In this document: piece after piece, positions 31,236 through 58,916 of the stretch | How the letters are laid out: each line of letters starts with the position of its first letter | Position numbering within the stretch: position 1 is the first letter of the stretch | From: a phage | Sequence record: PZ445436.1 | Strand: one strand, 5' to 3' | Length of the DNA stretch: 64,000 nucleotides | Notes under the pieces: model-generated | The model's input: only the letters and a program-made list of their open reading frames with translations | Databases searched by the model: none | What the model was told of the DNA's origin: nothing | Position numbers and translations under genes: made by a program

Positions 31236-31892
31236 ATGGCAGCACCTAGAATATCATTTTCGCCCTCTGATATTCTATTTGGTGTTCTAGATCGCTTGTT
31301 CAAAGATAACGCTACTGGGAAAGTTCTTGCTTCCCGGGTAGCTGTCGTAATTCTTTTATTTATGATGGCGATTGTTTGGTATAGGGGAGATAGTTTCTTT
31401 GAGTACTATAAGCAATCAAAGTATGAAACATACAGTGAAATTATTGAAAAGGAAAGAAATGCACGCTTTGAATCTGTCGCCCTGGAACAACTCCAGATAG
31501 TTCACATATCATCTGAGGCAGACTTTAGTGCGGTGTATTCTTTCCGCCCTAAAAACTTAAACTATTTTGTTGATATTATAGCATACGAAGGAAGATTACC
31601 TTCAACAATAACTGAAAAATCACTTGGAGGATATCCTGTTGATAAAACTATGGATGAATATACAGTTCATTTAAATGGACGTCATTATTATTCCAACTCA
31701 AAATTTGCTTTTTTACCAACTAAAAAGCCTACTCCCGAAATAAACTACATGTACAGTTGTCCATATTTTAATTTGGATAATATCTATGCTGGAACGATAA
31801 CCATGTACTGGTATAGAAATGATCATATAAGTAATGACCGCCTTGAATCAATATGTGCTCAGGCGGCCAGAATATTAGGAAGGGCTAAATAA
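31236..31892 (+). CDS. t: holin
   Basis: 218 aa; N-terminal TM segment VAVVILLFMMAIVWY then large periplasmic domain; T4 T holin length. Confidence 0.95.
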   Translation: MAAPRISFSPSDILFGVLDRLFKDNATGKVLASRVAVVILLFMMAIVWYRGDSFFEYYKQSKYETYSEIIEKERNARFESVALEQLQIVHISSEADFSAVYSFRPKNLNYFVDIIAYEGRLPSTITEKSLGGYPVDKTMDEYTVHLNGRHYYSNSKFAFLPTKKPTPEINYMYSCPYFNLDNIYAGTITMYWYRNDHISNDRLESICAQAARILGRAK

Positions 31893-55612: not shown

Positions 55613-55822
55613 TTAAATTACATGATTATTTATAATAAATTCTCGCGGAACGTTAAAATACCCGATTTTAGTTAATATAACAACATCACCGTTAATAATT
55701 ACCGGAGAATAATCTTCTGGAGCATTAAATTTCCAATGGGCTCTAATATTATATCCATCAGAACCAAATGCTCGAGTAGCCGGTCTCCCGGCTTTTTGCC
55801 ACGCGTAGAAATCAAATTTCAT
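55613..55822 (-). CDS. hypothetical protein
   Basis: 69-aa ORF. Confidence 0.45.
   Translation of the reverse strand: MKFDFYAWQKAGRPATRAFGSDGYNIRAHWKFNAPEDYSPVIINGDVVILTKIGYFNVPREFIINNHVI
55627..55634 (-). promoter_or_regulatory. late promoter TATAAATA for soc
   Basis: exact match about 30 nt before soc ATG; AAGGAG SD. Confidence 0.7.
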
Positions 55823-56013
55823 TTTGAATGATCTATAATTAATTTTAAATCTTCTTCACTGACAAAAATTTCGTCAGGACCTTCTATAACTTCAACCATA
55901 CGAAGTTGATTAGTTAAGAGCTCACATACGAGCTCCTTGTTATAATCTTTAAATAGCTGGTCAATACGTTTCTTATGGGCTTTCTTAAGCTGACGCTTAT
56001 TTAAACGAGCCAT
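55819..56013 (-). CDS. hypothetical basic protein
   Basis: 64-aa ORF. Confidence 0.45.
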   Translation of the reverse strand: MARLNKRQLKKAHKKRIDQLFKDYNKELVCELLTNQLRMVEVIEGPDEIFVSEEDLKLIIDHSK

Positions 56014-56531
56014 TAATAACCTCGGTCTTGACGAGCGAAGTTTTCAGCATTTTTCAGGTAATAAAGTTTAAAGATTTCTTCAGCTGACATTCCAAGAGCA
56101 ATAAATTTATTCATGAAAAAGTGAAATTGATCAATCAGTTCAAATTTAATTTCAAGTTGATCTTCAGGAGATAAGTCTTGAATTTTCTTGGATTGCATTT
56201 CAGAATAACGTTTCTTCCAAGGTTTCCATACAGCAGAAGCTTCTTTTTCACCATTACTCATACCACCAAGAGAAGTATATAGCTCGCGAGTTTCGTCTGC
56301 AATATAATCGTCTTGGTTTCGCAACCAAGCAAGAACTTCTCCTGCAGTTTCAAGTGAATCAGGATGACGATTTGTTTCTGGTTTATCATTAGCCAAACGA
56401 ATCTGTAAATGCCGCTGCATATCAAGCATAACCTGCAGTGGGTCAATATTGTGCATAATATTCTCAGCATATGCACGATTTGCTTTATCAACACCTTCGA
56501 TCAAATGAGCACATTCATTAAAGTGAGCCAT
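56013..56531 (-). CDS. 56: dCTPase/dUTPase (gene 56)
   Basis: 172 aa from ATG 56529-56531 (MAHFNECAHLIEG...); MotA-box middle promoter upstream. Confidence 0.85.
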   Translation of the reverse strand: MAHFNECAHLIEGVDKANRAYAENIMHNIDPLQVMLDMQRHLQIRLANDKPETNRHPDSLETAGEVLAWLRNQDDYIADETRELYTSLGGMSNGEKEASAVWKPWKKRYSEMQSKKIQDLSPEDQLEIKFELIDQFHFFMNKFIALGMSAEEIFKLYYLKNAENFARQDRGY

Positions 56532-56565
56532 TATTTTTCCTTTCAATTCATGGGTTAGTAGATTA

Positions 56566-56589
56566 ATTATACAATAAATATATAAAGCA
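56566..56589 (-). promoter_or_regulatory. MotA-dependent middle promoter for gene 56
   Basis: TTGCTTTA MotA box, 11-nt spacer, TATAAT. Confidence 0.6.
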
Positions 56590-56602
56590 ATAAGGAGGAC
56601 AT

Positions 56603-56803
56603 ATGGTACAAAAATTAATGGCACTTGTTAATGCCATCAAAGGTAATAAAAAGCGTATAGCTTTTACTATTTCTGCTATGGTAGGAATTTTACTCTGGAA
56701 CTTTATTTTATCACCTGTTGCAATTGCACATGGTATTAATATTCCAGTAGTTACTCTTGATACATTCGTAGATTTAGCATTTGCTTTAGTTGGGTTAATT
56801 TAA
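56603..56803 (+). CDS. possible 66-aa two-helix membrane protein on opposite strand
   Basis: TAAGGAGG 4 nt before ATG 56603; hydrophobic segments; only plus-strand ORF in the minus-strand block that does not overlap a minus gene body. Confidence 0.35.
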   Translation: MVQKLMALVNAIKGNKKRIAFTISAMVGILLWNFILSPVAIAHGINIPVVTLDTFVDLAFALVGLI

Positions 56804-57828
56804 ATCTTGGCATATTTAGATAGCCGCATTTTAGCCATCAACCCCTGCGCAATATTATTTTTCATATATTCCATAATTTGTTCAGGGGTTGCACCTTCCT
56901 TTCTAATCATATCATTAACATCTTTTGATTTCCAGGGAGATTTATCCCAAAACATAACCCTTTCTCCTGCATCAACTAATTTAGTCATTCGCTTAATAGT
57001 GTCAGGATGACGAGGTTCATTATCTAAAACCCACACTCGTCTATCTTTAAATGGAACAACTTCTAGGTCTAATTGACCACCTGTAATAGCTATACCATTT
57101 TCAATAAAAAGTGAATCTATAGGTCCTTCTAGAACATATACATCACCATCTTTAACTCGTTCAACACCGTAAATTTTTGTTGCCTCAGGATAAGCTTTAA
57201 TGGTGATATATTTTTGAGGAGCATCTTTCTTTAATGCACGTCCTTGAAAAGACTCAGCTTTTCCATTAGCATTATAAATTGGAATAACAAGACGAGGCTC
57301 AGAAATTTCCTTTTTGTATGTTCCCGGTGCTATGCTATTAACTAATTTAGGCCATTCGGTTGTAAACCAAAGATATTTCCATTTATCCTTTGGAATACAA
57401 CGAGCTTTTACATATTTTATAATTGGATGGTCTTCCGCCAGTTTATCTAATCTAACACATGACGGAAGAGATTTAATTATTTTCTTCTCAGGTTGCTTAG
57501 GAAGTTCTTTAGGTTTTTCTACTGGACGACTTTTACCTTTTTCTTTTCTTATTTCAAAGATATACTCACGATATAAATCAGGTTCAAACTCCTTTAAATA
57601 TATTCCTATCGGTGCATGATAGTTACAGTTATAACAATGAATATTTCCTTCATTATTATCACCATAATACCATCCACGAGCTTTATTCTGGTCGGTTTTT
57701 GAATCTCCACAAACAGGGCATCTAAACCGCAATTTAAAAGTTGAACTATTATTTACTTGTGTGAATTTAGGTAAATGAGCTAATGCACGGTATGCAAACT
57801 CATTATCAATCCAAGGTATTGATGACAT
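56800..57828 (-). CDS. 61: DNA primase gp61
   Basis: 342 aa; N-terminal zinc ribbon CPVCGDS...CYNC; Toprim region. Confidence 0.9.
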   Translation of the reverse strand: MSSIPWIDNEFAYRALAHLPKFTQVNNSSTFKLRFRCPVCGDSKTDQNKARGWYYGDNNEGNIHCYNCNYHAPIGIYLKEFEPDLYREYIFEIRKEKGKSRPVEKPKELPKQPEKKIIKSLPSCVRLDKLAEDHPIIKYVKARCIPKDKWKYLWFTTEWPKLVNSIAPGTYKKEISEPRLVIPIYNANGKAESFQGRALKKDAPQKYITIKAYPEATKIYGVERVKDGDVYVLEGPIDSLFIENGIAITGGQLDLEVVPFKDRRVWVLDNEPRHPDTIKRMTKLVDAGERVMFWDKSPWKSKDVNDMIRKEGATPEQIMEYMKNNIAQGLMAKMRLSKYAKI

Positions 57829-57996: not shown

Positions 57997-58623
57997 TTAA
58001 CCTCTATTCATAAAAGCATTAAAAATTTGGTCATCAATAGAAACATTTACTTTAGACTGTTTTTCTGATGGTAATTCATATCCACATATTACAATTTTGT
58101 GATCAATATCAAAATACACAGAAGCAATATGATTAATGATGTTTTCAGTAAAGTCTAAATCAACATCAATATCTTTTTGACCACAGCCCAAAGGATAAAT
58201 AATGCGAGTAATTCGATTATCTTTAACAAATATTCCACCGACATACTCTGTGCTGCGTTTAAAGTCTACACGCCGACGAAATGAAAAATATTCAGGCTCT
58301 CTATGAGCTCGGCTCATAGGACACAACGAGTAACTAGAATAAGAGATGTCAAATCCTACGCCTTCAATATGAGCCAAAGTGTCATGATTAAACCAATTAT
58401 AATCGTACGCCAAATCCATTAGATTATAATATGTAAAAGGCACCGGATTAACATCATTAGTCACAAGCATGTAATTAGCAACTGCTATAATTTCATTGTT
58501 TTTAACGAATACAAACCGTGATTGATGCGAATGACCTGGACCCGCGTTTTCACGATTAATGATATAACACTGGGCACCTTTATATTTGTATGTATCTTTG
58601 CATTTGTGCATTTGATAGAGCAT
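57997..58623 (-). CDS. hypothetical protein at the 61.2 position (possible anti-DarT factor AdfA homologue, by position only)
   Basis: 208-aa ORF between sp and 61. Confidence 0.35.
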   Translation of the reverse strand: MLYQMHKCKDTYKYKGAQCYIINRENAGPGHSHQSRFVFVKNNEIIAVANYMLVTNDVNPVPFTYYNLMDLAYDYNWFNHDTLAHIEGVGFDISYSSYSLCPMSRAHREPEYFSFRRRVDFKRSTEYVGGIFVKDNRITRIIYPLGCGQKDIDVDLDFTENIINHIASVYFDIDHKIVICGYELPSEKQSKVNVSIDDQIFNAFMNRG

Positions 58624-58916
58624 TATTCACCTACCACTTCAGCGATGATATTTTTATTATTAAAGTTTTTATCGCAATACAGAACATAATTATACTGCAT
58701 TACACCACCAGACTTAAGCTGTTTTTGCACTTCGGCTTTCATTTCAGGACGATCGCGCTCAACGATATTCATAATATCTGCTTCAATTTGGGTTTCAACT
58801 TCAGTCTGATCCGCAATCATAGACCATTCGCACAAATCTTTATCATAGCCTGCCATAGCAGGCTGAGCAGCACAAGAAGCTAAAGCAAAAATTGTAGCAA
58901 AGATAAATTTTTTCAT
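58623..58916 (-). CDS. sp: Spackle periplasmic protein
   Basis: 97 aa with cleavable signal peptide; T4 Sp length and position. Confidence 0.75.
   Translation of the reverse strand: MKKFIFATIFALASCAAQPAMAGYDKDLCEWSMIADQTEVETQIEADIMNIVERDRPEMKAEVQKQLKSGGVMQYNYVLYCDKNFNNKNIIAEVVGE

Follow-up and report, generated by a model that had tools for sequence, protein, structure and literature searches.

The 64-kb stretch of DNA analysed here (the window) belongs to a T4-type phage (genus Tequatrovirus) and carries, at 56603..56803 on the plus strand, an open reading frame (ORF) that is the orthologue of phage T4 gene dam.1, a conserved protein-coding gene of many T-even-type phages (Tevenvirinae plus Marfavirus). 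The gene is already known by this name, though it is uncharacterised. It is missing from the T4 reference records NC_000866 and AF158101, even though it is conserved, under purifying selection, and annotated in phage T4T and in hundreds of relatives. We are highly confident of the combined claim that the ORF is dam.1, that it is coding, and that its product is located in the membrane. In the best-studied lytic phage, the gene is a candidate, short and easily tested, for a late membrane function that is still uncharacterised. In practical terms the gain is modest, and the current understanding of T4 is unchanged.

The ORF starts with ATG and encodes 66 amino acids. It is preceded on the same strand by the Shine-Dalgarno site TAAGGAGG at 56591..56598, with a 4-nt spacer (ACAT) between this site and the start codon. 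The left neighbour is gene 56 (dCTPase/dUTPase; 56013..56531, minus strand), and the right neighbour is gene 61 (DNA primase; 56800..57828, minus strand), which converges on the ORF and overlaps it by 4 nt. The overlap is the TTAA at 56800-56803, common to both genes: the TAA of the ORF occupies 56801-56803, and the stop codon of gene 61 is the reverse complement of 56800-56802. From the start of gene 56 (56531) to the end of gene 61 (56800), the gap measures 268 bp.

An earlier note on this DNA had described an ORF with a ribosome-binding site 4 nt before its ATG, running 4 nt into the gene 61 stop codon within a gap of about 270 bp, and had singled it out as the one plus-strand ORF in the minus-strand block that lies clear of minus-strand genes. 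All of these points hold, the last in the sense that the ORF is the sole plus-strand ATG ORF of at least 40 amino acids that lies outside minus-strand ORFs in the block from approximately 32 to 64 kb. Over the 551 bases around the ORF, identity is 99.5% with phage vB_EcoM_G2133 and 98.5-99.1% with RB14 and T6. An Rfam scan of the 56-61 interval returned one chance-level snoRNA match and nothing else.

The identification with dam.1 rests on the T4T record HM137666, in which the dam.1 protein (T4Tp032, ADJ39749.1) is identical to the window protein at 65 of 66 residues (98%). The wild-type T4 records contain the same ORF, again 65/66 identical, within the 309-bp interval between dam and gene 61. 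T4 dam.1 and the window ORF share their position, strand, convergence on gene 61 and ribosome-binding site; they differ in that T4 has dam on the gene 56 side, and in the box found upstream, which is GATAAATA in T4 and AATAAATA here. In RB14 the ORF goes by the name RB32ORF030w, "similar to RB69ORF029w". The protein also matches the family phrog_2024 (hmmscan, E=1.4e-31; residues 2-66 against profile positions 1-65 of 65), to which PHROG assigns no function. When the window protein was used in a tblastn search, matches were found in 692 phage records, approximately 500 of them at 90% identity or more and 190 below 60%, mostly at about 50-57%.

The ORF is present yet unannotated in three T4 records (NC_000866, AF158101 and KJ477684) and in the records of JS98 (EF469154), JS10 (EU863409) and IME08 (NC_014260). 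Since the reference T4 records omit dam.1, any expression or proteome study mapped to the reference annotation would miss it. A search of the available literature that covered the gene names, T4 ribosome profiling, transcriptomes and re-annotation found no paper on dam.1, and no record of a transcript, ribosome footprint or peptide from it turned up.

A fixed gene beside a variable interval

T4 carries dam between genes 56 and 61, as the earlier note had stated, and the window is without it. These two facts could suggest that the ORF replaces dam, or that it is a lineage-specific novelty in the slot that dam occupies in T4, and the note had indeed described the ORF as filling that slot. The comparison with T4 goes against this description: T4 has both dam and the same ORF (65/66 amino acids), side by side, and so the ORF is not a stand-in for dam. 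Moreover, dam-plus and dam-minus Tequatroviruses alike keep the ORF, the two genes are not mutually exclusive, and Pfam and NCBIfam searches revealed no methyltransferase similarity in the ORF protein. We regard the replacement idea as already refuted and give it practically no chance of being correct.

What, then, is the relationship between dam and dam.1? The window and T4 are similar in DNA sequence up to 56571, a stretch that takes in the -10 element of the gene 56 promoter, and again from 56592, in the ribosome-binding site of the ORF. Between these two points, T4 has approximately 900 bp more, namely dam plus 112 bp upstream of it. T4-type Dam (90% identity or more) occurs in about 182 phage records, always as one copy per record, and the contiguous, dam-less 56-ORF-61 layout of the window occurs in 293 records. 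Phages T4, BF15, OMNI12 and MX01 have dam together with the ORF; in the last three of these, the interval between gene 56 and the ORF holds a 186-codon ORF in addition to dam. The same interval contains a homing endonuclease gene in fPS-90 and Mexia, and one or two small ORFs in Kanagawavirus, Moonvirus and Marfavirus. Given this varied cargo on the 5' side of the ORF (nothing, dam, an endonuclease gene or small ORFs), the interval is a hot spot for insertions, next to which the ORF stays fixed.

The earlier note had also raised the possibility that dam had simply been relocated. No dam homologue was found within the 64-kb window, so that for this stretch, which is the scope of the answer, simple relocation finds no support. 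From these sequence comparisons, the difference between the window phage and T4 looks like a presence/absence polymorphism of dam rather than a relocation. The dam gene is an accessory cassette, carried by some relatives, including T4, between gene 56 and the ORF.

Two further observations concern the DNA on the gene 56 side. The gene 56 region (56050-56571) is only about 75% identical to T4 at the DNA level, compared to 97% from 56592 onward. In the place of T4 segF, the window phage has two small ORFs (55613..55822 and 55819..56013). The divergence of gene 56 and the absence of segF fit the localized divergence that would be expected around a SegF cleavage site.

Family spread and selection on the protein

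The earlier note had left conservation in relatives to be judged from the 56-61 interval of T4-like genomes. When this interval was compared across genomes, the ORF was found in the same place in at least nine T4-like genera. It runs towards the 3' end of the convergent primase gene in Tequatrovirus, Mosigvirus, Gaprivervirus, Dhakavirus, Marfavirus, Kanagawavirus, Gelderlandvirus and Moonvirus, and in Klebsiella phage Mexia. At every locus examined, the ORF and the primase gene lie on opposite strands, and the ORF terminates at the primase stop codon or close to it. Five residues (W32, N33, P38, G44 and P48) are invariant in 12 representatives, the window protein included. A ribosome-binding site of the AGGAGG type is found at all family loci examined, with GGAGG or GGTGG in a few of them.

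The family could be widened this far only by means of a tblastn search with a tandem paralogue from Gaprivervirus, which added Dhakavirus, Marfavirus, Kanagawavirus, Gelderlandvirus, Moonvirus and Mexia. Some Gapriverviruses have a second, diverged tandem copy of the ORF, and this type of protein is the sole copy in Dhakavirus and several other genera. The second copy of Gaprivervirus is intact in UPEC01 and in two IMG/VR contigs, truncated in one case (VR20-like) and decayed in TH40; in DK-13 it is reduced to its 3' part and lies beside a homing endonuclease gene.

Members of this second type (Dhakavirus MX01 and JS98, Marfavirus, Kanagawavirus, Gelderlandvirus, Moonvirus, and the second copy of Gaprivervirus) resemble the window protein in locus, strand and match to phrog_2024. 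They also share a basic N-terminus, a transmembrane helix with the pattern WN..P and a loop with the pattern G..LP.V, at lengths of 63-74 amino acids, but their identity to the window protein is no more than 18-31%. The proteins nearest to the Gaprivervirus paralogue have an Asp in the transmembrane helix, and their C-terminal part is amphipathic and contains His, rather than being a hydrophobic acidic helix.

The limits of the family were approached in several ways. An ORF with the family motif was not found at the primase locus of Krischvirus, Slopekvirus, Acinetobacter phage Acj61 or Winklervirus CHI14, which indicates that the family is limited to a subset of the T4-like genera. In the first three of these, a gene on the same strand as the primase gene follows it within 15 bases or less (in Slopekvirus PMBT1, the dCTPase gene). 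An exhaustive phmmer search of 1.84 billion representative proteins returned only the Mosigvirus and Gaprivervirus clusters, fragments from close relatives and spurious repeat proteins. A word-indexed protein search returned only near-identical proteins, and a search for the locus in IMG/VR returned eight loci and no new lineages. Foldseek searches against BFVD retrieved mainly members of the family, among them a protein of phage CIP9 that is likely a distant member, together with weak matches to unnamed small proteins.

Could the ORF have arisen by chance, with the DNA around it conserved for other reasons? Two minus-strand signals overlap its 5' end, a terminator-like hairpin downstream of gene 61 and the middle promoter of gene 56 (described below), and the T4 reference annotation does without the ORF. 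One could argue on these grounds that conservation serves the minus-strand signals and that no protein is made. The hairpin, followed by a T-run, is at 56605..56640 on the minus strand; its stem (56640-56615) has 11 pairs and lies inside codons 5-13 of the ORF. A hairpin scan found this one site compared to 0.5 expected in shuffled sequences, the 80-nt stretch that contains it has a folding energy of -17.2 kcal/mol, and the equivalent hairpin is annotated "terminator" in the fPS-90 record.

The comparative evidence points instead to the protein. Among Tequatrovirus, Mosigvirus and Gaprivervirus, the ORF is only about 52-62% identical at the DNA level, yet the frame is open throughout, at 65-66 codons, and the Mosigvirus and Gaprivervirus proteins are 49-57% identical to the window protein. 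Between genera, the proportion of synonymous differences (pS, Nei-Gojobori) is 0.53-0.80, which is near saturation, and that of non-synonymous differences (pN) is 0.30-0.40; the dN/dS ratio, where dS could be computed, is 0.12-0.51. Within genera, dN/dS ranges from 0.16 to 0.73, with the highest values in pairs that include TH40. Twelve Tequatrovirus alleles differ at 29 sites, distributed 12/3/14 over the first, second and third codon positions. As many as 14 of these 29 sites are synonymous in the frame of the ORF, compared to 3-9 in the other five frames, and the amino-acid changes among Tequatroviruses are conservative (e.g., V/I, A/T and N/S).

Judged by these patterns of substitution, the ORF is a real gene under purifying selection at the protein level. 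The idea of a chance ORF is very improbable, considering that frame, length and the five invariant residues are kept across nine genera despite the low DNA identity between genera, that dN/dS is below 1 with synonymous enrichment in the ORF frame only, and that every family locus examined has a strong ribosome-binding site. The hairpin with its T-run, for its part, has no counterpart at the equivalent place in Mosigvirus or Gaprivervirus, the genera compared outside Tequatrovirus, and for this reason it was rejected as a conserved minus-strand structure.

Candidate late promoter and overlapping transcription signals

Early and middle transcripts of T4 all have one polarity, which corresponds to the minus strand of the window, and late transcripts can have either polarity (PMC2988020). 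Since the early and middle transcripts run the other way, dam.1, being on the plus strand, is most likely transcribed late. A box that resembles the T4 late promoter, AATAAATA, is found at 56573..56580 on the plus strand and ends 22 nt before the ATG. It matches the T4 late-promoter consensus TATAAATA, which spans -13 to -6, at seven of eight positions, with an A at -13. An A in place of T at this position is the commonest T4 variant, being present in 9 of 50 listed late-promoter sites (PMC2988020), and in related phages conservation of the T at -13 is poor (PMC1524935).

Of 11 contexts compared, at least 9 have a similar box that ends 12-22 nt ahead of the ATG, with a purine-rich ribosome-binding site (usually AGGAGG) after it. 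The exact box TATAAATA occurs at four loci from three to four genera (MX01, Marfa, Q7622 and CIP9), the form AATAAATA is shared by the window phage and Mosigvirus, GATAAATA is found in T4 and other dam-carrying phages, and CATAAATA in Gaprivervirus and Mexia. In CGG4-1 and CF1, which represent two genera with no better box, ATTAAATA was read by eye. Farther upstream of the boxes, the sequence is unrelated between genera (31% ungapped identity).

How much weight do these boxes bear? In shuffled sequences, each exact box has a probability of 0.002-0.007 and each box with one mismatch a probability of about 0.1-0.19. The box of the window, taken alone, has P=0.13, as a match with one mismatch is not rare in DNA of 75% A+T. 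Combining the loci gives p ~1e-6 if they are treated as independent, a value that is overstated because the loci are related. Within the window, four known late genes have the exact TATAAATA ahead of their start codons: gene 34 at a distance of 34 nt, gene 36 at 23 nt, t at 17 nt and soc at 30 nt.

Taken together with the strand argument, the boxes make it most likely that dam.1 is expressed late, from a candidate late promoter with a start near 56586. The gp55-RNA polymerase would transcribe the gene from the AATAAATA box at 56573-56580, and a transcript that began near 56586 would have a 17-nt leader containing the strong ribosome-binding site.

On the other strand, the same short stretch holds a sequence that fits a MotA-dependent middle promoter of gene 56. 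Its MotA box, TGCTTTA (56583..56589, minus strand; read from the sequence), abuts the ribosome-binding site of the ORF, and its -10 element, TATAAT (56566..56571, minus strand), is 11 nt away from the MotA box, with the AATAAATA box inside the spacer. At the equivalent position, the fPS-90 record annotates a "predicted middle promoter". The claim of the earlier note that sense and antisense signals overlap in this gap is borne out for the window phage, where the MotA box adjoins TAAGGAGG and the late-promoter-like box falls within the middle-promoter spacer. This is not so in T4, where dam intervenes and separates the two signals, and the overlap is therefore not a conserved requirement.

It was also considered whether the conserved ATAAATA might be a part of the minus-strand middle promoter. 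This candidate was rejected, as the placement of ATAAATA relative to the MotA box varies by genus (inside the spacer in the window phage, upstream of the box in Mosigvirus and Gaprivervirus) and its distance from the ATG stays similar.

If the candidate late promoter is used, where would the transcript end? A scan of 56300-57300, reaching 500 nt downstream, found no plus-strand terminator, and a late transcript would therefore probably continue antisense into gene 61. Perhaps the main role of the locus is then at the RNA level, with a late antisense transcript through gene 61 lowering primase expression and the peptide being secondary. The convergent, end-overlapping layout with gene 61 in almost all genera would fit this proposal, as would the failure to find a downstream plus-strand terminator. 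We nevertheless consider it unlikely: selection acts on the protein, which shows that the peptide matters, and the adjacency of ORF and primase gene is broken by the homing endonuclease gene in DK-13 and by the second copy in UPEC01. An antisense effect on primase expression that is added to a function of the dam.1 protein is possible.

Also in favour of late expression, ATAAATA, the core of the T4 late promoter, is strongly under-represented in the 64-kb window, with 15 sites compared to 37.7±5.7 expected from shuffles that preserve dinucleotides. Four of the 15 sites precede the known late genes 34, 36, t and soc. The scarcity fits selection against stray late promoters.

Predicted membrane protein and its possible roles

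The earlier note had described the product as a hydrophobic protein of two helices. The first part of this description stands, since the protein is strongly hydrophobic (GRAVY 1.25). The second part does not agree with the AlphaFold2 model (shallow alignment, pLDDT 80.5), which has three helices, at residues 2-12, 16-42 and 52-63, with a loop at 43-51. All five K/R residues are within residues 1-18, and the acidic residues of the window protein, D53 and D57, are both in the C-terminal part. The central helix, with a mean hydropathy of 2.0-2.6 in the four proteins analysed, is clearly of the membrane-spanning kind. The hydropathy of the C-terminal helix is 1.7-2.1 in the window subfamily versus 0.43 in the Gaprivervirus paralogue, and this helix may or may not cross the membrane.

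The dam.1 product is thereby predicted to be a protein of the inner membrane with a mass of about 7 kDa. Its N-terminal helix, basic and amphipathic, would lie in the cytoplasm by the positive-inside rule and be followed by one long transmembrane helix with the invariant Trp-Asn...Pro, a short conserved Gly...Pro loop, and the C-terminal helix. A signal-peptide reading, with A-I-A before H43, was also considered and seems less likely: at about 23 residues, the hydrophobic stretch is longer than expected of a cleaved signal, and Mosigvirus has not preserved the AxA motif. Sequence searches of Pfam, NCBIfam, PADLOC and PDB, along with Foldseek searches against PDB, turned up no meaningful relatives.

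What might such a protein do? Two database labels would make it a holin or a pinholin-like lysis protein: UniProt calls the OE5505 orthologue "Holin", and in the EAWsc9 record a match to the related paralogue is labelled "holin family protein". The protein is indeed small and hydrophobic, and its late-promoter-like box lies beside a strong ribosome-binding site, much as for gene t in the window. Class II holins and pinholins are of similar size, have hydrophobic helices and are likely expressed late, as is proposed for dam.1. They differ from it, however, in having a charged C-terminal tail, a match to a holin family and a neighbourhood of lysis genes. The C-terminus of the window protein is hydrophobic (…DLAFALVGLI), without the charged tail typical of holins, and the neighbours of the ORF are gene 56 and gene 61, with no endolysin or spanin gene adjoining. 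Twelve members of the family have no match to the Pfam holin families; the window protein matches no Pfam or NCBIfam family at all, and the matches of the other members are at chance level and not to holins. Moreover, the established T4 holin gene t is present in the window, at 31236..31892. The automated names given to family members also conflict with one another, including "head morphogenesis", "DNA packaging ATPase" and "dCTP pyrophosphatase". A holin function for dam.1 would seem improbable in light of these differences.

Our best guess is a late function in the cell envelope, for example in lysis timing, lysis inhibition or membrane-bound assembly, probably exerted as an oligomer or via a partner. 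We put this forward as a speculation of low confidence. Oligomerisation or binding of a partner would go through the polar residues of the transmembrane helix. Counting against such a role are the neighbours of the ORF, which are genes of replication and nucleotide metabolism on the opposite strand, and the finding of no relatives in Pfam, NCBIfam, PADLOC or PDB that would tie the protein to lysis or assembly.

A more specific proposal, which we consider speculative and rather doubtful, goes further. The dam.1 product would be a small membrane protein, made late and conserved in at least nine T-even-type genera, with an undiscovered part in one of the classic envelope processes of T4, such as the timing or inhibition of lysis, or exclusion and envelope repair. 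In the dam-less phages, late polymerase at the box could in addition contribute to shutting down the middle promoter of gene 56. The second part of this proposal derives from the location of the late box inside the spacer of that promoter: if late polymerase does bind the box in these phages, the bound polymerase could help to silence gene 56 middle transcription. In T4 records, the transcript of gene 56 is marked as the primer of the origin oriA.

The superinfection exclusion proteins Imm and Sp are, like the predicted dam.1 product, small envelope proteins of T-even phages. Their genes are on the early/middle strand, in contrast to dam.1, which is on the late strand. In the window, sp is located at 58623..58916, approximately 2 kb from the ORF.
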